Virus record (IMG/VR): IMGVR_UViG_3300013901_000014
Span: 14,875 to 78,874 of that record
Strand: one strand, 5' to 3'
DNA from: a virus
Lineage: Duplodnaviria; Caudoviricetes
DNA length: 64,000 nt
In this document: positions 1 through 52,785 of the stretch, piece by piece
Position numbering within the stretch: position 1 is the first letter of the stretch
How the letters are laid out: each line of letters opens with the position of its first letter
Made by a program: the position numbers and the translations under genes
The notes under the pieces: model-generated
Told to the model about the DNA's origin: nothing
Database searches by the model: none
The model's input: only the letters and a program-made list of their open reading frames with translations

Positions 1-3000
1 TTGAACGGCATTGTGAACGCCAAGTTGGCCGAGGAGAAGGGCAAAGGCGGTGAAGGCAGGAAGAAGGACTATGTGAAGATAGTGTTGTACACCGAGGACG
101 GGCGGACGTGGAAATACGGTGTTGTGCTGGATGACAAATATGCGCCCAAGAAGACTTCGACCGGCTCCATGCCGTTCTACCTTGGTGACGGCTTCGGCAC
201 GCGGAAGGAGGCGCAGGCATTTGTGGATAAGCACCGCGAGGAGTGGGACGCCAAAATAGCAGACATAGAGAAGGCGCGCCGCGACTTTGTGTATTTCAAA
301 GGCACCGGCGAGCGCACCGGCCAGGACTGGCGCAAGGGTGCTGACGTGAGTGCGGAGCAACTGATGGAGCAGTTCGGCTTCCGCGGCGTGCAGTTTGGCA
401 ACTGGACCAACCAGCGCGACCGGCAGGCTGCGGTGAACGGTGCCTTTGACGCCCTTATGGACTTGGCGCAGATATTGGGAGTGTCGCCGCGCGCGCTGAG
501 CCTGAACGGCGAGCTTGGCCTTGCGTTCGGCTCGCGCGGCGGCGGCAGCGCGAAGGCCCACTACGAGCCGGACGAGGTGGTGATTAACCTCACCAAGACA
601 CAGGGGGCGGGCTCGCTGGCCCACGAGTGGTGGCATGCGCTGGACAACTACTTCGCGCGCCACGGCAACGTGAAGGGCGGCATGGTGACCGAGTCGAAGG
701 GCATAGCGATGCGCGACGAGCTGCGGGAGGCGTTCAACGCCCTCATCGACAGCGTGGCGGGCAGCGACTACAACATCCGCTCGCGCCAGCGCGGCGCCAG
801 CTATTGGGGCCGGCCCGCTGAGGAGACCGCGAGGCTGTTTGCCGCGTGGGTGAGCGACGAGCTGCAGAAGCGCGGCTTGTCGAGTCCGTTCCTTTCTGAC
901 ACCGACCCCGGTGCTGCCGAGCGGTATGCCGAGATGATGTATCGCTTATACAAGGCGATGTATGAGAGTCGCAAGGCGGAGACCGGCGGCAAGGCGATGA
1001 CTTTTGAGGAGTTCAAGAAGACGCCGCTGGCTCTGAGCGGGTTTGTGTTTCCCGGCACGGAGGAGCTTGCGGCATTCGGCGGGCATCTGCGAAACATCTT
1101 CAACACAGTTCAGGAGAAGGTGGACGGGCAGACCGGCAAGACGCTGCTGTATCACCGCGGTCCGGTGGTGGCCGAGCCCAACGAGGCCGAGCAGGCTCTG
1201 CTGGAGGCGGTGAACGGTGTGCTGAAGGACACCGGCATCGAGGTGGTGACCGACACGGACGAGGGCCAGAAAGTGCTGGACGCGGCCAACGGGAATGATG
1301 TCAAGCTGGAGGCGAGCCACAGAAGCGGGGAAGCGGAGGAGCGCAACAAGATGTGGCGCCTCATAGACCGCGCAACGGCCATGTTTACAGGCAAAACAGA
1401 GAAGGAGGCGCGTGAGGCCCGCCGCAAGGAGATGCAAAAAATCACTGCTGAGAGGAAAGAAATGTACGACAGGGTTTTGTCGGGAAACTTCGATGAAGTA
1501 ACTTTGCGGCAGATAGACAACTACATCGATAATTTCTCACCCTACAACAATGAATGGAGACCAATTTCTAAACGACTTCCACAGAAGGCACTACGAGGCT
1601 TGCGAAAAGGAGAACGCGCGAGTGCGGTCGATGTACTTTTCTCACGAATATCTGAAAGCGCAGTCCCAAAGAATGAACGAGCTGGTGCAGAAGGAAAGAG
1701 AAGAATTGAGGAGAAAAAGAAAGAACTCCTCAAAAAGTGGGCAATAGCCACCGGCAACTGGCACACAAGTGTGTCGGACTTCACCGATGCCAAAGAGCCG
1801 CTTGGCAGCGGAAAAGACTCTGACGTATACCAGTCCAAAGACGGAAAGCACGTAATCAAAGTGTCGAAAGGCAAGGACGGCCTTAAGAAGTTCCGCCCCG
1901 ACATTGATGCTGTAACGCTGTTCAACTACATATTCCCTGAAAGTAGATACGAGATTCTGGGCTATGGCGAGGTTGACGGCAAGTTCGTGAAGTTCCTCAA
2001 GCAGCCAGTAGTGGACTTCACCGGCAGCAAACCGCTGTCGGCGGAGGAGCGTGTCGCCTATATGGCCGACATGGGCTTCAAGCCCGTCAACAAGGAGAAG
2101 ACCGCTTTCAGCAACGGCACTATCGTGGTTGCCGACCTGCAGGGCAACAACATCGTCAGAGACAAGTCGGGCAACATCCGCGTGATTGACGCAGACGTGA
2201 AGCTGCACACCAAGGACTTTGGCGGGCAGTACAGCTATCCGCCCGTTGAGGCCGACACCGCCCTGCCTCAAGCCAACAACGGCGGCAATGAAAAGCCGCG
2301 CATGCAGAAGGTGTACCACGGCAGTGGGGCGGACTTCGACGAGTTCGACAACTCGCACATGGGCGAGGGCGAAGGCGCGCAGGCATACGGCTGGGGCACA
2401 TACGTGACCGAGGTTGAGGGAATTGGCCGGACTTATGCGAAAGCGACTGCCCGTTATGATGACAACTCGTCGGAGGAAGTGCTGAATAGGGTCGAATCTT
2501 TGGCCGCAGATTTGATTAAAGACCGCTTCGGCTTTAGGCCGGGGCTTAGCGTTTCGGCCCGCGGTGACAACTACGACTTGGAAATTCCATCGGACAAAAA
2601 GACACTGGAGCAGATTAAATCATATTTCGACGAGTATCCGTATATGTGGAATGCGAAAGTCGACAGGGAATTGAGTTCGTTCAATCTGGACGATGCCGCT
2701 TCAAGAAGAGAGTTTGCCAACTGGGTTTATGAAATTGTTGAGCCGTTTGCGGCGGACGCCGTAGGCTATGCGCAGAAAGAAGAGACCGCCTCCCGCCACC
2801 TCTATACTGTTGAAATTCCCGATGACAACGGCGAGAACTATATTGATTATAATGGCAGGATAAGCGACATTCCATCACAGAAAATAGATGCAATATGCAC
2901 GGAGCTTGAAAAACTCGGATGGAAACGTAAGGACTTGCCGAGCATGGTAAGGCTCACGGATGGCTATGGCAATATAGTACTTAATCCCAATGCTGCGGGA

Positions 3001-6000
3001 GCAGACCTCTACGAGGAGATTAAGGTTGCGTTGAAGAGTCAGAAACTGGCGAGCGAACTGCTGTCAAGAGCCGGCTTTGCCGGCATAAAATACCCTGCTG
3101 AGTATATGAGCGGCGGGCGCAAGGACGGCGCCAAGAACTATGTGATTTTCAACGAGAAGGACGCAAGGATAACCGACCACGTGCGGTTTTTCCGCACGTC
3201 CGGCGGCGAGGCCTACGGCTTCACGGTGGGCGGCAAGATATACGTGGACCCGCGCATAGCCACTGCCGACACGCCGATACACGAGTACGCCCACCTGTGG
3301 GGCGACATGATGCGCCGCGTCAACCCCAAGGCGTGGGGCGACATCGTGCGCCTGATGAAGGGCAAGGGCGGCCTTTGGGACTGGGTGAAGAAGAACTACC
3401 CGGAGCTGGAGACCGACGACGAGGTGGCCGACGAGGTGCTGGCGCAGTTCTCGGGCAAGCGCGGAGCCGAGCGGCTGCGCGAGGAGATGCGCAAGACTGC
3501 CGAGGGCAGCGGCAGCATAACCGAAAAGGCCAAAGCCATAAGCGCGCTGCAGCGGGTGAAGGAGGCCCTTGGCAGGTTTTGGCGCGGAGTGGCCGAGCTG
3601 CTGCACATACGCTTCACCACGGCCGAGGAGGTGGCCGACCGCGTGATGGCCGACCTGCTGCACGGCGTGGACCCGCGCAAGGTCTCTAACGACAACAGAT
3701 ACAACGAGTTTGCCGAAAAACACAAAGTAGACGCAAACGAGGTGAAGGACTATGCCACTGCCATTAAGGATGGCAACCTGATGGCCGCCAATAGGGCATT
3801 AAGTGAAATTCGCCGCACTTTGCGAGTGGCGCACAGGGAAATGAACCTGCAAGAGTTCGGCAAATTCTTTCGGCCAATAAATCAAGAACTGGCAGAGCGG
3901 TTCGGCGATATTGAAAAATTGCGTCAAGAACACATTGCAGCTGCAGAGCGAGAGCACAACGCTATGGAGGCTGCACGCAAGAAAGCCGAAGAGGAGGAAG
4001 CAAAGAAGAGGAAGCGTCAGGAAGAATTGTCAATGCTCACTGCCGACGAGATAGACAAACGCTATGCGGAAGCCCTTGAAAGAGGCGACGAGGCGGCGGC
4101 AAGAGAGATGCTTGACGAGGCTGCACGCCGCAATGGATATGGCGACACGGAGAGCGACTACCAGGGCGTGGGCGCATGGGTGGCCCCTTCCAACCCAGGC
4201 TATGAGAGTGATGAGGCGCGACGCGCCGATGTTGAGGACAATGCGCCTGACGTGAATTTGGAGGACATGGCGTTAGGGTACAACCTACAGCCGGATGACT
4301 ATTTTACGCACCCGGAGCGTTACTCACAGGACACGCCGCACGGACGGGAGTCGACGCAAGCCATACACGCCGCACTCGAAGCGCTGAAGAGAGGCGACAA
4401 GGATGTGAAGGTGAAGGTGTACAGAGCCGTGCCGACATCGGTGAAAGAGGGAAGTCTGAGAAACGGCGACTGGGTGACCCCATCGAGAAAGTATGCCGAG
4501 ATGCACGGAAAGAGCAGGCTGGAAGGCAAATACCGCATCATAGAAGACGAAGTCCCGGCCAAAGACCTTTGGTGGGACGGCAACGATGCCAACGAGTTCG
4601 GATATGATGACGGCAGGGGGTACAAGTACAAGAACACCAAGAACAACAGAAAGCTGAACGACTTGGTGACGCGCGATGATGACGGCAACATCATTCCACC
4701 GTCAAAGCGTTTTAACGAGCGTGAGCAAGATGTGCGCTATTCGCTGCGCCACGTGTTTGGCGGCAACAGCGGCTATGTGGGCTACTCGATGAGCAAGCGC
4801 GCGGCGCAGGCGCGTGAGGACGGACGCTATCCGAAAACCGACTTCCGGAAGGAGTACAGCGTGACGCCGAAGACCTTTGACGCGCTTGTGGACGCTGGCG
4901 TGATTGACAGCGGCGAGTGGCACCACACCAGCATGTATGGCAACAAGACTCCGTTCTACGGGTGGAAGCCCATGTATGACGCAGTGTATGCCGCCAACAA
5001 AAAGGAAGTTGACAAGATGGCGCGGACCCTCAAGATGCAGCAGACTGAGGCTGAGTTTTCGGACTACCTTGACAACGACAACCCTTACCGCTACCGTCCC
5101 ACTTCGGAGGAGTACCAGAAGAAGATGGGCGATATAGACCGGCAAGAGAGTCATGCCGCCAGAGACATAAACCTGATGTATGACGATGCCTACAACCCTG
5201 AGACCGAGCGGAAGAGGATGCAAGAGCTTCAATCGCTACGCGAAAAGAGCGGCAAACTTAAAGACGAGGTGCGCCGCCAATACCCCGAGGACGCAGCGAT
5301 AGAGGCCGAAAACAGGAAAGGTGTCGACTGGCACGTTGAGCAGATTGAGAAGCGCAACAAGGAGAGAGAAGCCCTAAGGCAGAAATTCCATGATTACTTT
5401 GACGCGAAGCGCGACGAGCTCGTGTACGATGAGATGGAAAAGGCTGGCATACTCACTATGGGCGCGGACGGCCCGCATTGGAGCAAGCCTAAATATGCAG
5501 AGATATTCAACCATTATAAAGACGCGGCCATTGACACCATCGCAGAGGCAATGGCTGAAAGGCTGAAGAACCCCTACGACGAGGACTATGCCGAAGGGAT
5601 TTCCGAATACCGGAAAGACCTGCAAAAGGTCAAGGCTGACAAATGGGCTGAAGGCAACGCCTTGAATGCAAAGTATAGGGACAAGGAGTTCCGAAAGCAA
5701 CACCCTGACTACTACAAGCGAGAAAAAATGCTTGAAGAGGAAAAAGAGCGGCTCAGAGAGAAGTATGAGGCTCTTGAGGAAGATGTGCTCAAGCGTCACC
5801 CGGAGGAGTTGGAACGTAGGCAGAAAGCGTTTGAGTGGCCATCTGATGAGGAGGCGCAGCAACAAGCCCGAGAGAAACTACTTGCCGAACGCTTGCAACA
5901 GTTCTTTGAGGAAGACACCGCCGACCCGGACGAGGGGAAGAAGTTTCGTCTGCTGGACGATGACGACCCGCAGGCTCAGGAGCTGTCGCTGCCCGAAGGC

Positions 6001-9000
6001 GAGCCCAAGGAGACGCTTGCGCAGGCCATGGTGCGCCGCGTGAAGGAGCTGGCGGCGAAGCTTGGCGCGAAGGTGCGCATCGTCACCAGCGCCGATGATC
6101 TGCCCAAGACTCCGGGCAGCCGCCAGCGCAGGATGAAGGGCATGTATGACACCCGGACGGGCGAGGTGACAATAGTGATTGGCAACCACGAGAACCTTGC
6201 CGACGTGGAGAACACGGTGCTTCACGAGGCTGTGGGGCACAGGGGCTTTCGCGTGCTGTTTGACACCAAGGAGAAGTTCGACCACGCCATGGACGAGCTG
6301 TACCGCGTGTCGGGCGGGAAAATCAGGAAGTGGATAGACGACAAAGTGCGCAAGCTGTATGACGACGAGGTGGACCGCATAATGGAGCGCAAGCGCAAGG
6401 AGCGCCGCGCCAGGGGCGAGGGCCCGAGCGAGCACCATTTGGAGGACATGGCCGCGGCCGCCATCGAGGCGAGCAAGAAGAAGGACCAGTTCCGCCGCGA
6501 GGCCACCGAGGAATACGGCGCCCGCCTGGCTGGCCGCATAGGCGAGAAGGGCTTTGAGAAGCTGAGCGCGGAGGAGCAGACCTTCTGGGGCAGACTGAAG
6601 TCGATGCTGCAGAAGGCGCTGCAGCGATTGGCCGAGGGGCTGAACATCACCGGCAGGCACGAGTGGACCGACAAGGACTGGGCCTACGTGCTGCACGAGG
6701 CTTACAAGCGCGAGAAGAACGGCGGCAAGCCGAGCATCTTTGACGAGGCCGACACCATAGCCATGCGCATGCGCACCGGCTTCGGCGAGGGCAAAGAGGA
6801 AGGCCGCAAGATGACCACCCTATCAGGGGAAGAGGCCAAGCAGGCTCTTAATGAGATTTTCAGCGCGGAGTCACATACGGTCAAGCCAGAGAAGATTTCG
6901 TCTCTTGCAAAGTTTAGGGATATATTCAGTAAGCCGATACGCACGTTTTTGGGTGAAGTTATAAAGGTCAAGGATGCCGTGTGGAACAAGGTCCTCCGCG
7001 AAAACCGACAGAACATTTCCGGTGCAATACTGCCCACTTTGCAAAATGCGGACTTCGCCATCCGTGATACGGACGGAAGCATACTGTATGTGAAGCGGTT
7101 CTTGAACAGTACGGGAGAATCCACCTATAACGTGGCGGTTGTAAACAAACATGGCGAACTGGAGGACTACATCAGTTCTGTTCACATAAAAACAAATAAC
7201 AACCTGCTGAACAAAATAGGAAAAGGTGCCGAACTGCTAATACCGGAAAACCGGAATGGCTATGGGCACGAAGTCCCAAGCAGTTCAACACCCGATGCAA
7301 AGATAGACATAGAAAACGAAAGCGGCAACACTTTCGGCTCGAATAAGTACAAAAAATCTTCTGATGAGAACCCGGACGAGGGCATGATGTTCCGCGACGG
7401 TGACGATGACGACATTGGCGATGTGGACCTTGGCGACGCTGTGGACAAGATGCGCGATGCGGCAGTGGAGAGCAACGCCAACAACCTGCAGGCCAAGCGC
7501 GAGGCGATGAAGGCCATAGGCGGCAACCTGAGCAAGCTGCGTCAGGCTATGTCGCGGCAGAAGGTGTATGACAAGGGCACTGTGAAGAGCGTGACCGACA
7601 TGGCGCGCGAGATGCTGCAAAACGGCATGCTTGACAAGCTGAGCGGCTACGAGGCCAAGCGCATACTCTCGGCCGCGGCCAACGTGACGGGCGCGGAGAA
7701 CACGGCCAGACAGATTAACAAGCTGATGGACGTGATGGTGGACAACCAGCTGCGCAACGCCGGCGACACATTCGGCAAGCTGCTGCACTCCAAGGGCACG
7801 CGCGTGAACGCAAGCGGCGTGGAGGTGCAGGGCAAGCTCGACCCCGACGGCGCGGCCATAGTGGACGCCCTGAAGAAAGGCGTGCAGCTTGACAAGGAGG
7901 AGCTGAACGGGCGCATCGGCAAAGCGCTTGACAAAATCGGCAGCGAGGACAAGGTCATTGCCGACCAGGCCGCCAACGAGCTGGCCGGCCTGCAGCTGGC
8001 GTCCCGCTACGTGGAGGACATCAAGGGCAGCAAAGCCGAAGAGACAGAACTGCGCGAGAGCCTGAAAGAGGCCAAGGCGCAGAAAGACGCCGGCAAGATG
8101 AGCGCGGAGGCCTACAAGCAGTATTGCGAAGCCACCGAAGATGCCATACGACAGAACAAGATAGAGCGTGCCGACGCCTACCGACAGCTGATTGCACAGC
8201 TTGGCGGAGTGATGGGAGAAAGCGCAGAGCGCGCCAAAGCGTGGCGGGAGGCCGAAAAGCAGCGGGTGCAGGACATTCAGCACAACGCCAACTCGGACAT
8301 GCAGGGCAGGCCGTGTAACGAGCACCACAAACCATCATCACTACAGAAGTTGTGCAACAGCGACCTTATAAGGGGTCTCTTGATGCCACTTGCGACCTTT
8401 GAGCAGATGCTGCGAATGTTCGGCAACAAGAACGTGCACGGTGAGGGCTATCTGTGGAACCGCTTTGTGCGCGGCTGGCTCCGTGCTTCGGAAAACGAAT
8501 ACAGCGGTTACCGCGACGCGCTGAAAGAACTTGACGACAAAGTGAGCGAGATATTCGGCAAGAAGATGCGCTGGGGCGACATATTCAGCCTTGAGCGCAA
8601 GCTGCCCACCATGGAGGTGAAGTTTTGGGACGGCGGAGAGATGAAGCCGCACACGCTGACGCAGGGCAACCTTGCATACATCTACATGGTGGACAAGATG
8701 AGCGACGGGCGCATGAAGCTGCGCGCGATGGGCATCACCGAAGGAGATGTGGAGCAAATCGCAAAAGCACTTGACCCGAAACTGAAGAAACTTGCCGACT
8801 GGATGCAGGACGAGTTCCTGGTGCAGAGGCGCAACAAGTACAACGAGGTGCACAAGCGCATGTTTGGGGCATCGATGGCCGCCATTGAGAACTACTTCCC
8901 GCTGAAGATACTCTCGGGTGCACGCACGGAGAACGTGGATGTGGCGGACGATACCGGTGAGCCTACAATGACATCCACCACCACTGGCAGCATTGTCAAG

Positions 9001-10965
9001 CGCCGCCGCAACAACCTTGCGCTCGACATCACCAATGCAGACGCATTCTCGGTAATTCTTGAGCATTTGCAAGACATGGAGCACTGGGCCGCATACTCAG
9101 AGTTTAACCGCGACCTGAACACGCTGCTATCATACAGGCGGTTCAAGAACCAGGTGATGAACATGAGCAGCGCATACGGAGCCGGTGCAACACTGTGGAA
9201 AAACTTCCGCAATGTGTGCCAGCTGGCGGCTGGTTCATACCGCCCGCCGGTGGCGACACTTGACAAGACAATGGTAAACCTCGCCAAAGGCGTGACCGCT
9301 GCAAAGATTAGCTTCAGAATATTCACCGCCATCAAGCAGTTGCTTTCGTTCCCCGCTTATCTGCCTGACGCGAGCGCAAGGTATCTGCTTCAGAACCTTG
9401 CGAACCCAGTGGGCGCATGGAAATGGAGCATAGAGAACCTGCCGCTATTCCACAAACGATGGAACAGCCGCATGGCAGGCGACCCGCGACTGCTTAAAAC
9501 TGAAATGGACTGGAAGATGTGGCGCAGCCGCGTGGTGCAAATGGCGTCAAAATACGGCATGAGCCCCAACGCATTTGTGGATGCGGTTACCGTGGCAATG
9601 GGTGCGCACGCCATCTACAAGACCAAACTCGCCAAGTACCTCAAGCAGGGCTATGACAAGGACAAGGCCGAAGAGAAGGCGCGCCAAGACGCGGAGATTG
9701 CATACAACCAGACACAGCAGTCAAGCGAAGGTGCGTTCTTGTCGACAATGCAGGCCGACAGAACGTGGGGCAGCGTGCTGTTCACAGTGTTCCGCAACTC
9801 GGCAATGTCGTACACACGTCAGGAGTATGACGCGCTGCGCAACCTTGCGCGCAAGTTGACCACGAAGGGGTACAAGGAAAAGAGCATTGGGTTTATGGCA
9901 AAGCAGATGGTGCGTGACGGCCTTGACGAAAACACCGCATGGAGGAATGCAAAGCGCACATACAGCCGCTCAATATGGCGCGAGTTTGTGCGGGTGGCCA
10001 CGTTCGGCTACATATTGCAGCTTGCGTGGAACCTTGGCGCATACTTGCCGTATCTGTTGCTCGGAGACAACGACGACGACAAGAAGAAGATGCTCGAAGA
10101 CGCAGGACTTCACGCACTTGTTGGCAGCGTGGAGGGCTTGACTGGCGGTGACGTGCTGAGCACAGCCGGCCAGTATGCACTCACGGGCGAGGGCACTATT
10201 GGCAACTTAAAGAAGGAAATGCCACTTACCTCAGACTTGCATGCAATCTACCAGAGCTTCGACTACGATGCAGTGCAAGCCACCAACGACGTGCTGAATT
10301 TGCTTGTGCAGGCAGGCGTGGGCGTTAACCCGCAATCGCTGACCGATGCCGTGGTGGGCGTGATGGACTACTGCGAAAACAACCCGGCAGACGCGCGTGA
10401 GTGCGCATTGCTGATAGCGCGCATATTCAACACTCCGCAGAGCCAGCTCGACAAGATTTATTTCGACGAGATAGACCTTGACGGCAGCGACGCACGCAAA
10501 TTGTCGCCCAAGCAGATTGCCGAGCGCTACGCAAAATACAAACTAAGACGTAACACACCGCTCACTGCTTGGATGTATGGCGAGGACGGCAGAAAGGAGC
10601 GTGTCGCCAAGTATAAAAAAGCAGCCAACGATGTGGCAAAGGAAAGACTTTCGGCGTTGACCGACAGCCGCAGCGGTGAGGACTTCACAGACTGGCGCAA
10701 TGAGTACAAGCAGACATCTGAAGGTTGGGGCCGCATAAACGGGCTGAAGGATACAGACCCCGACCAATATGCGGCAGAAAGGAAGCAAATCGCGGGAACA
10801 CCGGCCGACACACGCTACCGCATAGAGAACCGCTACAAAGCACGCATCAACAAACTGACCGATGCGTGGCTTAAGGCCAAAACACCAGCAAGGCGGATGA
10901 AACTCGCCGATGCGATGGTTGCCCTGAAAAAGGACGAAGCCAAGCATCTTGCAGCGGGTAAGTAG
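1..10965 (+). CDS. Large polyvalent protein (5' truncated), probable virion-ejected protein
   Basis: 3654-aa open frame. LPD1-like zincin (FGFRGVQFGNW...HEWWH, nt ~367-640), polyvalent kinase (LGSGKDSDVY, VIK, DLQGNNI, VIDAD; ~1800-2200), ART-like (VYHGSGADFDEFD...YGWGTY; ~2310-3180), HEYAH (~3280) and HEAVGH (~6223) metallopeptidase motifs, second ART-like (VYRAVP...GDWVT; ~4415-4620), PBECR-like nuclease (~6900-7230), long helical C-terminal part. Confidence 0.9.
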   Translation: MNGIVNAKLAEEKGKGGEGRKKDYVKIVLYTEDGRTWKYGVVLDDKYAPKKTSTGSMPFYLGDGFGTRKEAQAFVDKHREEWDAKIADIEKARRDFVYFKGTGERTGQDWRKGADVSAEQLMEQFGFRGVQFGNWTNQRDRQAAVNGAFDALMDLAQILGVSPRALSLNGELGLAFGSRGGGSAKAHYEPDEVVINLTKTQGAGSLAHEWWHALDNYFARHGNVKGGMVTESKGIAMRDELREAFNALIDSVAGSDYNIRSRQRGASYWGRPAEETARLFAAWVSDELQKRGLSSPFLSDTDPGAAERYAEMMYRLYKAMYESRKAETGGKAMTFEEFKKTPLALSGFVFPGTEELAAFGGHLRNIFNTVQEKVDGQTGKTLLYHRGPVVAEPNEAEQALLEAVNGVLKDTGIEVVTDTDEGQKVLDAANGNDVKLEASHRSGEAEERNKMWRLIDRATAMFTGKTEKEAREARRKEMQKITAERKEMYDRVLSGNFDEVTLRQIDNYIDNFSPYNNEWRPISKRLPQKALRGLRKGERASAVDVLFSRISESAVPKNERAGAEGKRRIEEKKKELLKKWAIATGNWHTSVSDFTDAKEPLGSGKDSDVYQSKDGKHVIKVSKGKDGLKKFRPDIDAVTLFNYIFPESRYEILGYGEVDGKFVKFLKQPVVDFTGSKPLSAEERVAYMADMGFKPVNKEKTAFSNGTIVVADLQGNNIVRDKSGNIRVIDADVKLHTKDFGGQYSYPPVEADTALPQANNGGNEKPRMQKVYHGSGADFDEFDNSHMGEGEGAQAYGWGTYVTEVEGIGRTYAKATARYDDNSSEEVLNRVESLAADLIKDRFGFRPGLSVSARGDNYDLEIPSDKKTLEQIKSYFDEYPYMWNAKVDRELSSFNLDDAASRREFANWVYEIVEPFAADAVGYAQKEETASRHLYTVEIPDDNGENYIDYNGRISDIPSQKIDAICTELEKLGWKRKDLPSMVRLTDGYGNIVLNPNAAGADLYEEIKVALKSQKLASELLSRAGFAGIKYPAEYMSGGRKDGAKNYVIFNEKDARITDHVRFFRTSGGEAYGFTVGGKIYVDPRIATADTPIHEYAHLWGDMMRRVNPKAWGDIVRLMKGKGGLWDWVKKNYPELETDDEVADEVLAQFSGKRGAERLREEMRKTAEGSGSITEKAKAISALQRVKEALGRFWRGVAELLHIRFTTAEEVADRVMADLLHGVDPRKVSNDNRYNEFAEKHKVDANEVKDYATAIKDGNLMAANRALSEIRRTLRVAHREMNLQEFGKFFRPINQELAERFGDIEKLRQEHIAAAEREHNAMEAARKKAEEEEAKKRKRQEELSMLTADEIDKRYAEALERGDEAAAREMLDEAARRNGYGDTESDYQGVGAWVAPSNPGYESDEARRADVEDNAPDVNLEDMALGYNLQPDDYFTHPERYSQDTPHGRESTQAIHAALEALKRGDKDVKVKVYRAVPTSVKEGSLRNGDWVTPSRKYAEMHGKSRLEGKYRIIEDEVPAKDLWWDGNDANEFGYDDGRGYKYKNTKNNRKLNDLVTRDDDGNIIPPSKRFNEREQDVRYSLRHVFGGNSGYVGYSMSKRAAQAREDGRYPKTDFRKEYSVTPKTFDALVDAGVIDSGEWHHTSMYGNKTPFYGWKPMYDAVYAANKKEVDKMARTLKMQQTEAEFSDYLDNDNPYRYRPTSEEYQKKMGDIDRQESHAARDINLMYDDAYNPETERKRMQELQSLREKSGKLKDEVRRQYPEDAAIEAENRKGVDWHVEQIEKRNKEREALRQKFHDYFDAKRDELVYDEMEKAGILTMGADGPHWSKPKYAEIFNHYKDAAIDTIAEAMAERLKNPYDEDYAEGISEYRKDLQKVKADKWAEGNALNAKYRDKEFRKQHPDYYKREKMLEEEKERLREKYEALEEDVLKRHPEELERRQKAFEWPSDEEAQQQAREKLLAERLQQFFEEDTADPDEGKKFRLLDDDDPQAQELSLPEGEPKETLAQAMVRRVKELAAKLGAKVRIVTSADDLPKTPGSRQRRMKGMYDTRTGEVTIVIGNHENLADVENTVLHEAVGHRGFRVLFDTKEKFDHAMDELYRVSGGKIRKWIDDKVRKLYDDEVDRIMERKRKERRARGEGPSEHHLEDMAAAAIEASKKKDQFRREATEEYGARLAGRIGEKGFEKLSAEEQTFWGRLKSMLQKALQRLAEGLNITGRHEWTDKDWAYVLHEAYKREKNGGKPSIFDEADTIAMRMRTGFGEGKEEGRKMTTLSGEEAKQALNEIFSAESHTVKPEKISSLAKFRDIFSKPIRTFLGEVIKVKDAVWNKVLRENRQNISGAILPTLQNADFAIRDTDGSILYVKRFLNSTGESTYNVAVVNKHGELEDYISSVHIKTNNNLLNKIGKGAELLIPENRNGYGHEVPSSSTPDAKIDIENESGNTFGSNKYKKSSDENPDEGMMFRDGDDDDIGDVDLGDAVDKMRDAAVESNANNLQAKREAMKAIGGNLSKLRQAMSRQKVYDKGTVKSVTDMAREMLQNGMLDKLSGYEAKRILSAAANVTGAENTARQINKLMDVMVDNQLRNAGDTFGKLLHSKGTRVNASGVEVQGKLDPDGAAIVDALKKGVQLDKEELNGRIGKALDKIGSEDKVIADQAANELAGLQLASRYVEDIKGSKAEETELRESLKEAKAQKDAGKMSAEAYKQYCEATEDAIRQNKIERADAYRQLIAQLGGVMGESAERAKAWREAEKQRVQDIQHNANSDMQGRPCNEHHKPSSLQKLCNSDLIRGLLMPLATFEQMLRMFGNKNVHGEGYLWNRFVRGWLRASENEYSGYRDALKELDDKVSEIFGKKMRWGDIFSLERKLPTMEVKFWDGGEMKPHTLTQGNLAYIYMVDKMSDGRMKLRAMGITEGDVEQIAKALDPKLKKLADWMQDEFLVQRRNKYNEVHKRMFGASMAAIENYFPLKILSGARTENVDVADDTGEPTMTSTTTGSIVKRRRNNLALDITNADAFSVILEHLQDMEHWAAYSEFNRDLNTLLSYRRFKNQVMNMSSAYGAGATLWKNFRNVCQLAAGSYRPPVATLDKTMVNLAKGVTAAKISFRIFTAIKQLLSFPAYLPDASARYLLQNLANPVGAWKWSIENLPLFHKRWNSRMAGDPRLLKTEMDWKMWRSRVVQMASKYGMSPNAFVDAVTVAMGAHAIYKTKLAKYLKQGYDKDKAEEKARQDAEIAYNQTQQSSEGAFLSTMQADRTWGSVLFTVFRNSAMSYTRQEYDALRNLARKLTTKGYKEKSIGFMAKQMVRDGLDENTAWRNAKRTYSRSIWREFVRVATFGYILQLAWNLGAYLPYLLLGDNDDDKKKMLEDAGLHALVGSVEGLTGGDVLSTAGQYALTGEGTIGNLKKEMPLTSDLHAIYQSFDYDAVQATNDVLNLLVQAGVGVNPQSLTDAVVGVMDYCENNPADARECALLIARIFNTPQSQLDKIYFDEIDLDGSDARKLSPKQIAERYAKYKLRRNTPLTAWMYGEDGRKERVAKYKKAANDVAKERLSALTDSRSGEDFTDWRNEYKQTSEGWGRINGLKDTDPDQYAAERKQIAGTPADTRYRIENRYKARINKLTDAWLKAKTPARRMKLADAMVALKKDEAKHLAAGK
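1476..1506 (+). promoter_or_regulatory. Internal Bacteroidetes sigma-A promoter inside the polyvalent ORF
   Basis: TTTG (1476-1479), 19-nt spacer, TAACTTTG (1499-1506) = exact TTTG-N19-21-TAnnTTTG consensus. Confidence 0.7.
1550..1747 (+). CDS. Nested out-of-frame 65-aa ORF, candidate antitoxin of the downstream kinase domain
   Basis: ATG ~40 nt after a consensus promoter, A at -3 and -6, helical charged peptide; ends immediately before kinase motif I. Confidence 0.55.
   Translation: MNGDQFLNDFHRRHYEACEKENARVRSMYFSHEYLKAQSQRMNELVQKEREELRRKRKNSSKSGQ
7212..7292 (-). ncRNA. Candidate antisense three-way-junction RNA at the end of the PBECR-like domain
   Basis: 14-bp outer stem 7279-7292/7225-7238 (two G-U pairs only on minus strand), inner hairpins 7263-7278 and 7243-7254, U-tract at 7221-7224. 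Confidence 0.55.
7298..7328 (-). promoter_or_regulatory. Antisense promoter inside the polyvalent ORF
   Basis: CAAAGATA at 7298-7305 = TATCTTTG on minus; TTG element 20 nt upstream (7326-7328). Confidence 0.6.
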
Positions 10966-10987: not shown

Positions 10988-11031
10988 AGAGTGGGTGCAA
11001 TAATGACTAATATTGCACCCACACTGTTTTT
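10988..11031 (+). terminator. Hairpin/intrinsic terminator between polyvalent gene and portal
   Basis: GTGGGTGCAATA (10991-11002) / TATTGCACCCAC (11011-11022) perfect 12-bp stem followed by TTTTT. Confidence 0.6.
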
Positions 11032-27284: not shown

Positions 27285-28454
27285 TTAACGATTTTCGGAA
27301 CCCGGGCCAACCACGGCATCAATGACGCGGCGGTTGGCGATGTCGACCTTCGAGCGGTCGAAGCGGATGTAAATGTCCGTAACCGAGCCGCTGGAGTGGC
27401 CCAGGCCCTCGGCGATGACCTCCTTCGGCACATCAAGCTCGGCCGCCGCCGTGGCCCAGGAATGCCGTGCCCAGTAGGTGGTGAGCTGGCCAAAGCCAGG
27501 CAGCCGGTGAAGCCCGGCGTTTATTTGCATATTCGCGCTGCGCAAATCGGAATAGCGCTCATGCAGGTCGAGGAGCCACACACCGCCGGGCGAGCGGTAG
27601 CGCTCAATGAGTGCCGCTGCCTCGGGCTCCACCTTTATATCGTAGAGGTGGCCCGTTTTGGCGCGCCGGTAGCTGAGACGGCCGCCGCTGTAGTCCTCGG
27701 CCCGGAGGCTGAAGAGGTCCGTTGCGTTGATGCCCATCAGCAGGAAGATGAGGCGGAACATGTCGAGGGCAAAGGCCTCCAGCGCGCCAGCGGGCTGAAG
27801 CGTCCACAACGAGCGCAAGGCTAACAGCTCAAGCGACCGCTTCGCGGTTGGCTCTTTCTTGAGCTTATAGCGGCGGAACGGATACGCGGTTGTCGCCTCA
27901 TCATCGATGGCGGCATTGAACACCGCCCGGAGGCATCGAAGATAAAGCCCGCATGTGTTAAGGCAGTTGCCGCGCGCAAGGTTCCATGACACAAACCCGT
28001 CCAGCCATTGCCGGTTGACCTCGTCGAAAGTAACCGAGGCGAACCCGGGGCACCAGGCGCGCAGGGCCGACAGCGCCGTGGCGTAAGCGTGCCGGGAATT
28101 GGCGCTGCGGCGCGAGTTCATCACACGCTCGAAGTAGGGCAGGAGGAGGTTTGCCTTCGCCGGCTTCTCGGGCTCATAGAAGCGGGCCAGGAGCGCGGTG
28201 CGGATGTCGGCAAGCGGCATGCCCTGCATATCGAGCAGCGCGGCCTCGATGTCGAGGTAACGGCGCATCAGGTAGTTGTTATAAGCGGCGCGGCTGGGGT
28301 GCTTCACCACGCGCTGGGCGCGGGCGTCCCACTGCCCCGGGGCGAGGCTGATGTTAGTAGGCAGATAGACCGCGGAGTTCTTTTTGCGGATTGCGAATTT
28401 AAGCGGCGAGAGGTCCTTGCCGTGACGGGTATCGAGATAAAGCGAAAGTTTCAT
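27285..28454 (-). CDS. int: Tyrosine integrase (Bacteroidales arm-binding + SAM-like + catalytic domains)
   Basis: GINATDL, YRRAKTG, YWARHSWATAA, LGHS...VTDIYIR catalytic motifs; start MKLSLYLD at 28454. Confidence 0.92.
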   Translation of the reverse strand: MKLSLYLDTRHGKDLSPLKFAIRKKNSAVYLPTNISLAPGQWDARAQRVVKHPSRAAYNNYLMRRYLDIEAALLDMQGMPLADIRTALLARFYEPEKPAKANLLLPYFERVMNSRRSANSRHAYATALSALRAWCPGFASVTFDEVNRQWLDGFVSWNLARGNCLNTCGLYLRCLRAVFNAAIDDEATTAYPFRRYKLKKEPTAKRSLELLALRSLWTLQPAGALEAFALDMFRLIFLLMGINATDLFSLRAEDYSGGRLSYRRAKTGHLYDIKVEPEAAALIERYRSPGGVWLLDLHERYSDLRSANMQINAGLHRLPGFGQLTTYWARHSWATAAAELDVPKEVIAEGLGHSSGSVTDIYIRFDRSKVDIANRRVIDAVVGPGSENR

Positions 28455-28699
28455 TTTTGGTGCATTGTTTTGAACATTGTCGGCGCTGCAAAGGGCAGCA
28501 GCCGCGGGCGGAAAAGTGCGAAAATAATGCACCCCGGAAGCGCCCGGGAGCATTGCCGGCAAACGAATGCCGCATAAATAAAGGGCCGGCGGCTTTGCGC
28601 GCACAACTCTTATTACTTATTTATAGCGCTTTCGCAATTATTTTATTTTCAGACAGTTGTGATTTGGCCGCGAAATCGGTGCATTGTTGTTGCACTTTT
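28455..28699. other. Putative intact attP
   Basis: 22-bp inverted arm-like sites AAAAGTGC-N6-AATGCACC at 28512-28533 and 28678-28699, third GGTGCATTGTT at 28459-28469, AT-rich centre. Confidence 0.6.
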
Positions 28700-31889: not shown

Positions 31890-31982
31890 TGCCCGCGCCG
31901 GGAGGTGGAGCCCATGGCCAATGGCCGGGGTAAGTCAGGCAGCGGCCTGGCGGGTGCGGTTCGACTCCGCGCATGGGCACAC
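31890..31982 (+). ncRNA. tRNA-like element 2 (acceptor stem + T arm)
   Basis: TGCCCG/TGGGCA stem, GTGCGG-TTCGACT-CCGCGC T arm, ends GGCACA. Confidence 0.6.
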
Positions 31983-43561: not shown

Positions 43562-43851
43562 TGATGAGAAGGAGCACAAACAACCGCAAGCCGATAGGCG
43601 CCGTCCCCGCCCGGCAGGAGGCACCTGTCCGCCATTGCTGGGATTGCGATCTCGTGGCTGACACCTATGGCGTGAACCGGGCGGGCGCTCCGATCCTTTG
43701 CCAATGCCCGCATGGGGGCAAGCACTATCACTTTTTGTCCGATACCGCCTGTGCGCATTTTAGGGCCGCAGACGCAACCAAGCAACAGCAACAGACAGCA
43801 CATGACCGAGGAGGAAAGACGCGCGCAGCGGGCGCGCATTGCAGCGATTGA
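43558..43851 (+). CDS. Small Cys-rich protein
   Basis: CWDC...CQCP...C motif; fills gap between portal and MuF. Confidence 0.5.
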   Translation: MMMRRSTNNRKPIGAVPARQEAPVRHCWDCDLVADTYGVNRAGAPILCQCPHGGKHYHFLSDTACAHFRAADATKQQQQTAHDRGGKTRAAGAHCSD

Positions 43852-46156
43852 GCGCAAGTATAACCAAACCCATCTGCGCAACCTCGCGCAATATCAGGCG
43901 GAGATTACGCGCATATTCGAGGACGTGGCCCAGGAGGCCGCGCGCCTCGGCGTGACCCTTGACGCCCCCGGTGGGCGGATGCTTTCCTTCAACGACCTGC
44001 CCGCTGCCAAGCGCCGCGTCAACGCCATGCTTAAGGCCATGCGCAAGCGGCTGGAGGCGGCGGTGGTCAACGGCATAGACGCGGAGTGGGCGCTCGCCAA
44101 CGGCAAGAACGATGCCGTCGTCGAGCAGATAGCGGCTGCGGGGCTGACGAAGGGCGACACGAAGGTCTACTTCAACAGCCACGCTGCCGCCCTCAAGGCG
44201 TTCAAGGCACGCAAGACGGCGGGCATAGGGCTGAGCCGCCGCGTGTGGAACCTTACGCAGCAGTACAAGAGCGAGCTCGAGATGGCGCTCGACTGCGGCA
44301 TCCGCGACGGGCTGTCGGCACAGGAGATGGCCCGGCAGCTGAAGCAGTACCTGAATTATCCCGACAAGCTGTTCAGGCGGGTGAGGGACGAGCACGGGGT
44401 GCTCCAGCTGAGCAAGGCGGCTGCGGCGTTCCACCCGGGCCGCGGCGTGTACCGCAGCAGCCACAAGAATGCGCTGCGTCTGGCCGGCACCGAGACGAAC
44501 ATCGCCTACCGCACGGCCGACCACGAGCGCGTCCAGGCCCTCGATTTCGTCCTCGGCATAAAAATCGTACTGAGCAACAACCACACCATCCGCAACAGCA
44601 AGGGCCAGCGGGTGCCGCTGACCGACATCTGCGACGAGCTGGCGGGCAGCTACCCCAAGGGCTTCAAGTTCACGGGGTGGCATCCGAACTGCCGCTGCCA
44701 TACCGAGACAATCCTCCTGAGCGGTGCGGACTTCGAGAACTTCATCAAGGCCAAGCGCGAGGGGCGGGCCTACGACATCACCAAGGCCAGGGGCTACGTG
44801 GCCGAGCCACCCGCGGCATTCAAGGCCTGGGTGAAGGGCAACGCGGGGCGCATTGCCGCAGCGGCCAAGGCGGGCACCACGCCCTACTTCATCAAGGACA
44901 ACCAGGGGGCCGTGGACGCGCTGCTCGGCCAGTCCAAGGCGGCATCGAAGCCCGCGGCGTCGACCCAACCCGCACAGGTTGCAAAGGAGCCAACCGAGAT
45001 TGAGGCATTGGCCAAGAGGCTGGGCATCGAGGCAGGCGAGCCGATGACGCATGAGCAGGCAAACACCATGAGGCCGAACCCCCACTTCCAGGAGGATGAG
45101 CAATATCAAATCAACTGCCAAAGCGCGGTCGTGACATACGAGCTGCGCCGCCGCGGCCTGGATATTGAGGCGTTCGGAAATCCGGGCTCACCGGATTACG
45201 CACCCAGATGGCTGTCATACAACACGCGCGCCGCATGGCTTACGGACGATGGCAAGCTCCCCGAATGGATATATCGCGTGAGAGAAGTGAAGGGGTGGAC
45301 CGCGGACAAACTTGGACGGGCGCGGCGCACATACGAGAAGCCCGATGAGGTATGGCTGGACTTCGCAGATAAGACTAAGGCGCCGGGGCGCTATCACATC
45401 AGCTGGACCTGGAAAAATGAAAGAGCGGGTCACATAATAACGATGGAAGTCAGCGAGAAAGGCCGCCGAAGTTTTTATGACCCGCAGACGGGCCAAAACT
45501 CAAGGACCATCATCACGTGGCTCATGGATGGCCGCAAATGCCGGATTGACCTGGACAAAGGCATCTGGGGCTACCGGGTAGACAACGCCCACCCGAATGC
45601 CGAGATTGTAAGGGGCGTTGTCAAGAAGGCGGGGTCGAAGGCGAAGACGCCAAAGATCAGCGCCGAGGCGAAGGACGCATTCCTCAAGCTCCAAAACGGG
45701 AAGAACTGGACGCAGGCGGGGGCAACATCGCAAGTTGGGGCAGGAAGGGATCCGGGTATATTTCAGAAACAAAAAGAGGTCAGAAAAGACAGAAGCAAAT
45801 TTGTGACTTCTGTATTAAAAGATTGTCCAGGTACAAAAACGGGTAAACTTTGGCATAATGGCCAGTCAAGAAAAGCCGTTATCGCACATTTGCGCCACGA
45901 GGAGGAAATCCCCGCGGCGGAATATGCGTGGAGCAATCCGCAAGAGCTGCATTTCGTCAAAAAAAGTCCATTAGGAGAGGGAAAAGACATGTCGACAGAG
46001 AAAGCGCAAAATAACATTGCACGAAAAACAGCACGCGGGGTGCAATATTATAACTTGTACGAATTTGAGTTCAACGGGAAAACATGGCACATGAAAATGG
46101 AGGTCATACAAAAAGGGGCGGCTCTTTTTGAGCAGTTTTACAGTTTAGTCCCATAG
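43802..46156 (+). CDS. MuF-like minor head protein with papain-fold toxin domain and C-terminal BECR/LPD3-like domain
   Basis: WHPNCRCHTE (MuF); NCQSAVVTYELRRRG...GHII...YDPQTG (Cys-His-Asp papain fold); AT-richer last ~150 aa with YNLYEFEF...MKME; ATG 43802. Confidence 0.85.
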   Translation: MTEEERRAQRARIAAIERKYNQTHLRNLAQYQAEITRIFEDVAQEAARLGVTLDAPGGRMLSFNDLPAAKRRVNAMLKAMRKRLEAAVVNGIDAEWALANGKNDAVVEQIAAAGLTKGDTKVYFNSHAAALKAFKARKTAGIGLSRRVWNLTQQYKSELEMALDCGIRDGLSAQEMARQLKQYLNYPDKLFRRVRDEHGVLQLSKAAAAFHPGRGVYRSSHKNALRLAGTETNIAYRTADHERVQALDFVLGIKIVLSNNHTIRNSKGQRVPLTDICDELAGSYPKGFKFTGWHPNCRCHTETILLSGADFENFIKAKREGRAYDITKARGYVAEPPAAFKAWVKGNAGRIAAAAKAGTTPYFIKDNQGAVDALLGQSKAASKPAASTQPAQVAKEPTEIEALAKRLGIEAGEPMTHEQANTMRPNPHFQEDEQYQINCQSAVVTYELRRRGLDIEAFGNPGSPDYAPRWLSYNTRAAWLTDDGKLPEWIYRVREVKGWTADKLGRARRTYEKPDEVWLDFADKTKAPGRYHISWTWKNERAGHIITMEVSEKGRRSFYDPQTGQNSRTIITWLMDGRKCRIDLDKGIWGYRVDNAHPNAEIVRGVVKKAGSKAKTPKISAEAKDAFLKLQNGKNWTQAGATSQVGAGRDPGIFQKQKEVRKDRSKFVTSVLKDCPGTKTGKLWHNGQSRKAVIAHLRHEEEIPAAEYAWSNPQELHFVKKSPLGEGKDMSTEKAQNNIARKTARGVQYYNLYEFEFNGKTWHMKMEVIQKGAALFEQFYSLVP

Positions 46157-46158
46157 GC

Positions 46159-46227
46159 ATAAAAAATCCCAGTCCCTGCCCACTTAAGAGCCGGCGCGTT
46201 CATACCCACGCCTTGCGACTGAGATTC
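46159..46227 (-). ncRNA. Candidate antisense three-way-junction RNA after the MuF toxin gene
   Basis: 10-bp outer stem 46217-46226/46165-46174 (G-U only on minus), two inner hairpins, U-tract 46161-46166. Confidence 0.6.
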
Positions 46228-46233
46228 TCAGTG

Positions 46234-46241
46234 CAAAAGTA
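46234..46241 (-). promoter_or_regulatory. -7 box of antisense promoter
   Basis: CAAAAGTA = TACTTTTG on minus, 7 nt from the start of the structured element. Confidence 0.6.
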
Positions 46242-46286
46242 GTACTTTTTTTCGACCCACGAAACAATCAGTATCAAAAAAAGTAT

Positions 46287-46294
46287 TAAATTTG
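46287..46294 (+). promoter_or_regulatory. -7 box for a two-gene moron
   Basis: TAAATTTG 33 nt before ATG 46327. Confidence 0.55.
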
Positions 46295-46326
46295 CCCTGC
46301 TATAAAACATTTAACAACATTTTGGC

Positions 46327-46473
46327 ATGGAAGATTTTAAGAACAAAGTGGCGGAGCTGGCCGAAATCCTGCTCCAGATGAAATGGGCGTATCCCAACGG
46401 GTATCAACAGCTGCTGCGTGAGGCCCAAAGGCTTTTCGAGGAATTGTCCGACCCCAGCGGCTGGGAGGAGTAA
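46327..46473 (+). CDS. 48-aa protein (AYPNGYQQLL motif)
   Basis: Translated by hand: MEDFKNKVAELAEILLQMKWAYPNGYQQLLREAQRLFEELSDPSGWEE; not in ORF track. Confidence 0.65.
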   Translation: MEDFKNKVAELAEILLQMKWAYPNGYQQLLREAQRLFEELSDPSGWEE

Positions 46474-46499
46474 AGCCACCACGAACACGGCAAACAAAA

Positions 46500-46727
46500 A
46501 TGGAAGAAGAAAAAACAATCATGCGCGAGCGCCTGGAGGATTTAAGGCTCGCAATTTCATGGCGCGACATTGCAAACCGATATTTTAGCAAATCGGCCTC
46601 CTGGCTGTACCACAAGCTCGACGGCATCGATAGCAAAGGCGGTTTTACCGAGGAGGAGGCGGAGCAGCTGAAGCGCGCGCTTTACGACCTTTCGGACCGG
46701 ATAAGAGCCGCCGCCGATAAGATATGA
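46500..46727 (+). CDS. DUF5053-like HTH protein
   Basis: ISWRDIANRYFSKSASWLYHKLDGID...FTEEEAEQLKRALYDLSDRI. Confidence 0.8.
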   Translation: MEEEKTIMRERLEDLRLAISWRDIANRYFSKSASWLYHKLDGIDSKGGFTEEEAEQLKRALYDLSDRIRAAADKI

Positions 46728-46768
46728 CAACATCGCCCACCGGTGGGCAAAATAAAAAAAAACACATT

Positions 46769-47185
46769 ATGAGAAAAATCAGAGAAATCATCGTCCACTG
46801 CTCGGCCACACCCGAGGGCAAGGACTTCACCACGGCCGACATCGACCGCTGGCACAAGGCCCGCGGCTTCCGCTGCATCGGCTACCATTATGTGATTTAC
46901 AGAGACGGCAGCGTCCACCGCGGCCGCCCGGAGGCCGATGTCGGCGCGCATTGCACCGGGCACAACGCCGCGAGCATCGGCGTTTGCTACATAGGCGGCT
47001 GCGCGGCCGACGGCAGGACACCGAAGGACACCAGGACGGCAGCCCAGAAGGCCGCGCTGCTGAAACTCCTCACCGAACTCAAGCACCGCTATCCGTTAGC
47101 AACGATCCACGGGCACCGCGACTTCGCGGCCAAGGCCTGCCCGAGCTTTGACGCCACAACCGAGTATCGCTGCATAAAGGCATGA
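46769..47185 (+). CDS. N-acetylmuramoyl-L-alanine amidase endolysin (T7 lysozyme-like)
   Basis: IIVHCSAT, IGYHYVI, GAHCTGHN, HGHRDF...KACP; ATG 46769. Confidence 0.93.
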   Translation: MRKIREIIVHCSATPEGKDFTTADIDRWHKARGFRCIGYHYVIYRDGSVHRGRPEADVGAHCTGHNAASIGVCYIGGCAADGRTPKDTRTAAQKAALLKLLTELKHRYPLATIHGHRDFAAKACPSFDATTEYRCIKA

Positions 47186-47676
47186 AGAAGACAATGATTG
47201 CGGCCGTGATTGCCGCGGCCTGGGCCGGATGGTGGCTGGCCGAACGGAGGGCGGCCAGCCAAGGCGAAACCCTCGTGCGCGTTGACACCATCACACGCAC
47301 CGACACGATTATCGCCCGCGCCCCCGCGGCGCGCGGATGCACGCTGGTGAGATACATCACCGTGCGGGCGCCCGCAGTGCGCGGGGACACCGCCACAGGC
47401 GCCCACGAGGCTACGGGGGACACCGCCGAGGTGGCCCTGCCGATAACGCAGCTGCGCTACACCGACGACAGCACCTACACGGCGTGGGTGAGCGGCTACC
47501 AGCCGCGGCTCGACAGCATACGCACCTACAGGCGCACGGCCACCATCACGCGTGAAATCACGCGCCAGGCACCGCGCAGCCGCTGGGGCCTCGGCGTGCA
47601 AGCCGGCTACGGCCTGACCCCGCACGGGTTCCAGCCGTATATCGGTCTGGGTATAAATTATCGAATCGGAAAATAA
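47182..47676 (+). CDS. Rz/spanin-like envelope protein
   Basis: N-terminal hydrophobic anchor, VDTITRTDT repeats, C-terminal WGLGVQAGYG...YIGLGINY beta strands; follows endolysin. Confidence 0.65.
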   Translation: MKKTMIAAVIAAAWAGWWLAERRAASQGETLVRVDTITRTDTIIARAPAARGCTLVRYITVRAPAVRGDTATGAHEATGDTAEVALPITQLRYTDDSTYTAWVSGYQPRLDSIRTYRRTATITREITRQAPRSRWGLGVQAGYGLTPHGFQPYIGLGINYRIGK

Positions 47677-47687
47677 AAAAGAGAAAA

Positions 47688-47915
47688 ATGAAGCAGAAAT
47701 ATTTGCAAGAAGCAAAAAAGATGGCCCGGAATTTGGGCTATCACGACGCGGTGCGCCGCGGCACCTGGAACGGCTACGAAGTGGTCGCTCCGGTATTCAC
47801 CGACAACGAGATGCACATCATCGGCCTGCCGCAATACATCCTTTACAAGGACGGCAAGCTGAACTGGACCAAAGGCATGGAGGGGCTCAAAATCATGAGT
47901 GCGCTGATGGGTTAA
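47688..47915 (+). CDS. Small protein, candidate immunity protein for the papain-fold toxin
   Basis: GTWNGYEVVAPVF...GLPQYILYKDG resembles small genes seen beside papain-toxin MuF genes (recall, unverified). Confidence 0.55.
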   Translation: MKQKYLQEAKKMARNLGYHDAVRRGTWNGYEVVAPVFTDNEMHIIGLPQYILYKDGKLNWTKGMEGLKIMSALMG

Positions 47916-52689: not shown

Positions 52690-52761
52690 CGCGGGGTGGA
52701 GCAGCGGCAGCTCGTCAGGGTCATGACCTGAAGGTCGTCGGTTCGAGTCCGGCCCCCGCCA
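52690..52761 (+). tRNA. tRNA-Met (CAT), initiator-like, no encoded CCA
   Basis: Full cloverleaf: CGCGGGG/CCCCGCC acceptor (C1:C72 mismatch), GAGC/GCTC D stem, TCAGG/CCTGA anticodon stem with loop GTCATGA, GTCGG-TTCGAGT-CCGGC T arm. Confidence 0.9.
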
Positions 52762-52785
52762 CAAAAGACCAAAAACGCGCACATT

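Follow-up and report, generated by a model that had tools for sequence, protein, structure and literature searches.

The window analysed here, a stretch of 64,000 nt, contains a small RNA element on the minus strand directly behind the stop codon of a MuF-type head-morphogenesis gene. This element is very probably a real RNA gene, coupled to the exchangeable C-terminal domain of the MuF protein (hereafter the tail). We put the probability that the RNA neutralises the tail, either by direct binding or by antisense pairing, at roughly 0.6, and "antitoxin" may reasonably be inferred as its role. The main evidence is a strand-specific fold that covaries across 14 loci, a promoter box found at every one of them, and the joint replacement of tail and RNA in three independent comparisons of related loci.

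A predicted antisense RNA behind the MuF stop codon

The element consists of the following parts.

46161-46229, minus strand: predicted Y-shaped small RNA of about 70 nt with a three-way junction, recognised from folds, the covariance models R1 and R2 and a 14-locus alignment
46226-46217 with 46174-46165, minus strand: outer stem, in which AAUCUCAGUC pairs with GACUGGGAUU
46212-46193, minus strand: hairpin 2, 6 bp, loop GGUAUGAA
46191-46178, minus strand: hairpin 3, GCUC/GGGC, loop UUAAGU
46166-46161, minus strand: U6 tract, ending 5 nt from the MuF stop codon (46154-46156)
46241-46234, minus strand: Bacteroidetes-type -7 promoter box TACTTTTG, upstream of the RNA
46264-46261, minus strand: near-consensus -33 element TTTC, 19 nt upstream of the TACTTTTG box

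Both ends of the RNA are predictions, based on the promoter box for the 5' end and on the U-tract for the 3' end. An earlier note on this DNA had described the box, stem, hairpins and U6 tract as an antisense RNA, and all of them were found on the minus strand at the positions given above. The consensus of the Bacteroides -7 element is TAnnTTTG (PMC4747536), and 26 such boxes were counted in the 128 kb of strand that the window comprises. A generic scan for sigma-70 promoters and simple hairpins did not pick up the element, which is no surprise for a Bacteroidetes promoter combined with a branched terminator. One pair in the outer stem is U-G on the minus strand and would be a C-A mismatch if the plus strand were the RNA. 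When the sequence is folded by itself, the minus strand reaches -29.1 kcal/mol (z -2.75; 4 of 200 shuffles equally good) and -33.6 with a 5' extension, compared to -13.6 kcal/mol (z -0.56) for the plus strand. These single-sequence statistics are only moderate and alone are suggestive; it is the comparative evidence, rather than single-sequence folding, that places the element above chance. No Rfam 15 family reached its gathering score, the strongest match below it having 9.9 bits and an E value of 8.5, and ARAGORN called neither a tRNA nor a tmRNA at the locus.

The covariance model R1, built from five close copies, found new antisense copies right after the stop codon with E values of 1e-6 to 1e-12 at L009, L010, L015, L017 and L019, where the tails have 42-52% amino-acid identity. 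The second model, R2, added two further copies (L028 and L029). The resulting set consists of the window and 13 other loci, one of which keeps a stub of the tail only. The earlier note had staked its reading on conservation downstream of homologous domains, and the RNA was indeed found behind 13 homologous C-terminal domains, down to about 42% identity, and behind the one stub.

In the 14-locus alignment, 93.1% of the pair cells are paired compared to 35-45% when the partners are slid, and both sides have changed in 22 of the 23 pairs, which none of 500 shuffles matched; because the sequences were aligned by fitting them to the model, these figures are biased towards pairing, but the difference remains large. 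G-U cells outnumber A-C cells by 50 to 4 in a test of the strand, and the minus strand gives the better fold in each of the 14 sequences, with a mean of -29.9 kcal/mol against -17.4 kcal/mol on the plus strand. Additionally, the start of the model is preceded at every locus (14/14), at a distance of 0-7 nt, by a TAnnTTTG box, with about 0.003 expected per 10-nt window, and at many of these loci TTTG is found 19-22 nt upstream of the box. The distance from the U-tract to the stop codon is 0-5 nt across the loci. While the stems vary, certain unpaired letters are kept, namely UUA..U in loop 3, GAA in loop 2 and an A in the junction. On this comparison of sequences, the element is a strand-specific, structurally conserved RNA gene.

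Among approximately 300 Bacteroidales genomes, the RNA model matches only beside the domain or its stub, although such counts of absence are soft, as genome-wide RNA searches lose divergent copies that are known to be present. At L022 (1426-1582) an orphan RNA gene (47 bits, TATTTTTG box) sits beside a frameshifted tail stub of 23 aa, and the 75-aa gene described below is missing from this locus.

The MuF tail, its exchange and the genes that follow

The MuF gene, with portal and terminase genes upstream of it, and its surroundings are organised as follows.

43712-46156, plus strand: MuF-type head-morphogenesis gene, longest ORF 814 aa, with matches to PHROG head-morphogenesis/MuF families including the Bxa type
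45110-45493, plus strand: papain-fold glutamine deamidase toxin domain, aa 467-594 (Pfam PF15644, E 1.4e-9)
45749-46153, plus strand: C-terminal domain (the tail), aa 680-814, about 135 aa, of an unnamed family
45662-46231: variable cassette, comprising the C-terminal domain and the putatively transcribed part of the RNA gene; similarity to a phage with another tail type is lost exactly here
46287-46294, plus strand: TAAATTTG box, the likely promoter of the lysis cassette, divergent from the promoter of the RNA
46327-47676, plus strand: separable lysis cassette with a 48-aa ORF, DUF5053, an N-acetylmuramoyl-L-alanine amidase and DUF6808 (Pfam and PHROGs)
47688-47915, plus strand: conserved 75-aa protein beginning MKQKYL, the first ORF after MuF and RNA where the lysis cassette is missing

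The true start of the MuF gene is likely at 43802, giving a protein of 784 aa, because the database protein P0002 has this length and nucleotide homology to the relatives begins there. The first 30 codons of the longest ORF (43712-43801) are probably not translated. The glutamine deamidase domain was present in all seven MuF homologues scanned, regardless of their tail, and is thus the constant toxin domain of this MuF group.

The tail itself matched no Pfam family at E values up to 10 and no NCBIfam entry, and 51 members of its family likewise matched no Pfam family at E values up to 0.01, stray single matches aside. The family comprises 161 representative clusters, and where a range is listed, the domain is mostly at or near the C-terminal end. 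H726, K758, N768, K772, Y783, E807 and Y810 fall at invariant or nearly invariant columns of the family. The AF2 model of the tail has a pLDDT of 96.8. VIA aligned this model with CdiA-CT, BrnT, RelE, MqsR, YoeB, HigB and colicin D, with Z scores of only 5.0-2.9, and the best alignments from the full VIA library were almost all to BECR-type RNase toxins. The BFVD matches were models annotated as LPD3 or polyvalent proteins (TM 0.53-0.60, E 0.007-0.05), and the protein atlas gave weak LPD3 leads only (0.78). Foldseek against the PDB returned nothing clear, and a sequence profile search of the PDB gave no match. "RNase-like" is therefore to be read as a reasonable lead from the structural model, and fold matches of this weakness could reflect a common alpha/beta arrangement.

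Comparison of related loci shows that tail and RNA are replaced together. The window and L012, which has a different tail, are 83% identical up to 45661, share no similarity through 46231 and are 79.5% identical from 46232, so that similarity resumes at the promoter of the RNA. Similarity between L003 and L011 is likewise lost over tail and RNA. L007 and L032 cannot be aligned over a segment of about 560 nt that holds the tail, the RNA and the promoter, but on either side of it, over 2.6 kb upstream and 1.4 kb downstream, their identity is 98-99%. In all three independent comparisons, similarity returns at or just past the promoter, that is, beyond the RNA. This co-exchange could be plain linkage of adjacent DNA.

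The segments of L007 (3001-5364) and L032 (1501-3883) are chromosomal prophage remnants located between tsaD and a DUF4421 gene. Each consists of an N-terminally truncated MuF gene (deamidase and tail), the antisense RNA, the 75-aa protein and an ORF of about 122 aa, and looks like a retained or domesticated toxin module.

In L011 and L012 the last approximately 150 aa of the MuF protein are unrelated to those of the window, while trunk and linker are common. The alternative tails have a weak resemblance to CdiA_C, below threshold, and carry antisense RNAs of their own with the same layout of box, structure and U-tract. One such RNA is shared by L011, L031 and L032, where the changes in the terminator stem are wobble-compatible. 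L012 has another, and the terminator there, as well as in L027, overlaps the last codons of the gene. The same layout is seen at L024-L027, which are distant members of the tail family of the window (z -3.4 to -6.0), and the model does not recognise these RNAs, which are not recognisably homologous to that of the window. The earlier note had proposed a family of RNA antitoxins; same-layout antisense RNAs do accompany other tail types, but "one family" is too strong a term for RNAs of unrelated sequence.

No plausible ORF was found inside the cassette, which thus holds no protein gene specific to the C-terminal domain. A hidden small protein gene in the gap was considered and rejected, since the only ORFs there are 23-36 aa long and none of them is conserved.

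The earlier note had also named the ORFs at 46327 and 46500 as possible neutralisers of the tail. They are poor candidates, as they belong to the separable lysis cassette, which is absent from seven loci that all have tail and RNA (L003, L007, L009, L010, L015, L017 and L019). L012, with its different tail, carries the lysis cassette in a form that lacks DUF5053 and has a stop codon within the 48-aa ORF. The spacer with the TAAATTTG box is kept wherever the lysis cassette occurs, L012 included, and the cassette has the appearance of an insertion that brings its own box.

Possible roles of the RNA

We propose that a Bacteroidetes sigma-A-type promoter of its own would drive the RNA of about 70 nt against the direction of the late operon, with the outer stem and U-tract serving as its terminator just short of the MuF stop codon. 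The RNA and the variable, RNase-like MuF domain would form one exchangeable cassette in which the RNA is the cognate partner of the domain and serves as an RNA "immunity" factor. In this role it would keep the virion-delivered and presumably toxic domain harmless in the producing cell or lysogen, and it would be expressed from the prophage like a moron, independently of the late genes. The mechanism would most likely be direct RNA-protein binding through the conserved loops, as in type III systems, because cis-antisense action needs no conserved loops. For neutralisation by direct binding taken separately, our confidence lies somewhat below even odds.

Against an antidote made of RNA, the known MuF toxins, Bacteroides Bxa included, use protein immunity (PMC5576092, PMC11699363), and the conserved 75-aa protein that is always nearby may be the protein antidote of the tail. 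In the literature we searched, polymorphic toxins, MuF toxins among them, pair with small immunity proteins, and a description of an RNA in the immunity slot of such a toxin was not found.

The proposed pair resembles type III toxin-antitoxin systems (ToxIN, CptIN, TenpIN; PMC8860590, PMC5086642) in that a structured non-coding RNA would bind and neutralise an RNase-type protein, in the specificity of the RNA for its cognate protein and in the link to phages. However, the RNA antitoxins of the reviewed type III systems are tandem-repeat arrays paired with ToxN-like RNases, located upstream of the toxin and co-transcribed with it, while the RNA described here is downstream, antisense and equipped with its own promoter. 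It is also single-copy, the covariance model giving one match per locus, and apart from an unrelated 9-nt unit no tandem repeats were found in 45500-47000. The type III toxin is a ToxN/AbiQ, CptN or TenpN endoribonuclease that processes the RNA, whereas here the candidate toxin forms the C-terminal end of a virion protein of 814 aa, weakly RelE/LPD3-like in its predicted structure, and no sign of processing is seen.

The arrangement is also close to the MuF polymorphic toxin cassettes (Jamet et al., 2017, PMC5576092; Bxa with Bsi and BAH, Alexei et al., 2024, PMC11699363), which share the constant MuF trunk and variable C-terminal domain, the exchange of this domain together with the adjacent downstream element (three swaps here) and the occurrence in Bacteroidales prophages, where a glutamine deamidase variant has been described (PMC11699363). 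The difference is that those cassettes exchange a small protein ORF, while this one exchanges a non-coding RNA on the opposite strand and has two stacked effector domains.

Prophage antisense RNAs that converge on the 3' end of their target are found in the type I pairs txpA/RatA, bsrG/SR4 and RalR/RalA, and lambda OOP is a further example. Like the txpA/RatA-type RNAs and OOP, the RNA in the window would be encoded by a prophage and run from a promoter of its own towards the 3' end of its target gene. Type I antisense RNAs are complementary to the mRNA. The RNA in the window can pair with the 70 nt that follow the stop codon, and these would be in the mRNA only upon read-through. Overlap with the coding sequence is nil in the window and amounts to a few codons in L012 and L027, and the junction and loops of the RNA are conserved. 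The toxins differ as well, being small hydrophobic peptides in type I systems and an 814-aa MuF head protein here. The RalR/RalA pair is cited in the study of MuF toxins (PMC5576092).

PBECR and LPD3 domains (Iyer et al., 2017, PMC5512222) are comparable in that they are small alpha/beta domains at the end of MuF proteins, predicted to be packaged and injected, and in the fold-level resemblance of the modelled tail to LPD3-annotated models and BECR toxins. Unlike them, the tail is not recognised by any of the Pfam profiles for PBECR or LPD domains. The same paper describes neither an RNA partner nor an immunity factor for PBECR/LPD3 domains.

Several other explanations have to be weighed against neutralisation by direct binding. 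The action of the RNA might be confined to pairing at the 3' end of the late muF transcript, in the manner of type I antisense RNAs, triggering cleavage or decay that silences a leaky toxic protein in lysogens. The RNA is prophage-borne, convergent with muF, independently promoted and terminated at the stop codon, and the terminators of L012 and L027 overlap the last codons of the gene; moreover, perfect complementarity to a read-through transcript is automatic, which would explain the co-exchange trivially. Nevertheless, the RNA lies wholly outside the coding sequence in the window and in most relatives. The junction and loop letters are kept across 42-90% protein identity, while an antisense target co-varies by definition, and the orphan RNA of L022 persists with nearly all of the target gene gone. 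The protein to be silenced would also be an 814-aa structural component that the phage needs and not a small membrane peptide. We therefore consider it unlikely that antisense pairing is the whole explanation. A role that is independent of the tail would make the RNA a terminator or insulator, or a moron small RNA that regulates host genes and varies because it lies at a recombination-prone spot. The outer stem and U-tract do look like a terminator, promoter-plus-terminator units are typical of morons, and any target or partner of the RNA in trans is putative only. However, the plus strand has no U-tract after the stem, so it is not the terminator of muF, and the inner hairpins and loops covary, which a terminator does not need. 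The right-hand breakpoint lies beyond the RNA in three independent swaps, the model matches nowhere else in about 300 genomes, and sites complementary to the two loops are absent elsewhere in the window. All of this makes a tail-independent role distinctly improbable.

The evidence for a partnership between RNA and tail would serve equally well if the RNA were a cofactor or cargo, carried into the capsid and the next host by an RNA-binding or RNA-guided PBECR/LPD3-like tail, with the complex acting early in infection. The C-terminal PBECR domains of MuF proteins are predicted to be packaged and injected, the inactive version in Mu F may act through RNA binding (PMC5512222), and the tail resembles phage LPD3 domains of unknown function. 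Against this, packaging of the RNA is a proposal, and a constitutive antisense promoter is not an obvious means of supplying cargo at a late stage. The near-invariant His, Lys, Tyr and Glu also look more like an active site than a binding surface, and we give the cargo explanation correspondingly little credence. It is very unlikely, finally, that the 75-aa protein (47688-47915) neutralises the C-terminal domain and the RNA does something else. This protein is the first ORF after MuF at the 8 loci without the lysis cassette and is also present in the window, L002, L004 and L013, and a small ORF follows 89% of MuF toxin genes (PMC5576092). But it recurs in L011 (88% identity) and, as the next gene called (75 aa), in L032, both of which have unrelated tails. 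Because it lies beyond the exchanged stretch and does not change with the tail, it tracks the constant deamidase domain, and small-ORF immunity has been predicted for Bacteroidales MuF-glutamine deamidase toxins (PMC11699363). By sequence, the 75-aa protein is thus a candidate immunity factor, more likely for the deamidase domain.

Two further ideas about the RNA were rejected. A dimer through kissing loops was considered from the palindromic CUUAAG in the window (loop and closing bases), which is not conserved (UUAAAU and UUAGAU variants occur), and a packaging RNA similar to the pRNA of phi29, considered from a three-way junction near packaging genes, found no support.

If the RNA does neutralise the tail, the concepts of polymorphic toxins and RNA antitoxins would meet in a single-copy, self-promoted structured RNA exchanged along with a toxin-like domain. 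It would explain phage effector domains that lack a visible immunity gene, and would allow cognate pairs to be predicted from sequence alone. A broader generalisation, in which one kind of RNA per tail type provides the immunity factors of virion-delivered RNase-like MuF domains, and perhaps of polyvalent proteins, in Bacteroidales phages, is rather doubtful. Were it true, each prophage-expressed RNA would protect producing cells and lysogens by binding to its cognate domain, and polymorphic toxin systems would have an RNA-based layer of immunity exchanged as toxin-RNA cassettes. In practical terms, a family absent from Rfam 15 with covariation that is unusually clean for 70 nt is a good target for structural and binding studies, and annotators should not treat the gap behind MuF genes as empty.

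The companion element and the genomic setting

The window covers bases 14875-78874 of a 78.9-kb IMG/VR virus record and holds two sets of structural genes, with portal genes at 11013 and 42173.

1-10965: giant polyvalent-protein ORF of the first module, 3654 aa, with Kinase-PolyVal, LPD1, LPD5 and ART-PolyVal
11013 and 17752: portal gene and head protein gene of the first module
27285-28604, minus strand: integrase gene, located between both structural modules
40703, 42173 and 43712-46156: terminase, portal and MuF genes of the second phage

The earlier note had pointed to a similar element at 7212-7305 and assigned the two to different phages, which is a fair description given the two portal genes and the integrase gene between the modules. 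The record may consist of two adjacent prophages or of a joined assembly (1-28604 and 28605-64000), though it is rated as one 100% complete virus.

The companion has the same type of box and a strong fold on the minus strand, and its sequence is unrelated, as the model of the RNA behind MuF gives no match to it. The companion is at 7205-7305 on the minus strand with a TATCTTTG box at 7305-7298, and folds with -33.5 kcal/mol (z -4.2) on this strand; the z score of the plus strand is -3.2. It sits inside the uninterrupted 3654-aa polyvalent-protein frame and not in a gap, and would thus be an antisense RNA gene within a protein-coding region. Sequence similarity between the tail and the region of the giant ORF before 7212 is absent.

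The MAGs that contain relatives of the second phage carry the labels Muribaculaceae, Muribaculum and Tidjanibacter. A host from the Bacteroidales is therefore probable, in agreement with the TAnnTTTG type of promoter. Bacteroidales-type phage contigs with TAnnTTTG promoters were also found in MAGs labelled Wujia chipingensis and Lachnospiraceae (L014/L003 and L016/L010), and these labels probably reflect mis-binned phage contigs. Scans of IMG/VR with the tail or the RNA as query did not find relatives. In a search of phage GenBank records the DUF5053 gene alone was matched, to Porphyromonas phages. ARAGORN calls a 90-nt tRNA-Ile (aat) at 31891-31980, which Rfam does not confirm, and both programs agree on a tRNA-Met at 52690-52762, among the tail genes of the second phage.
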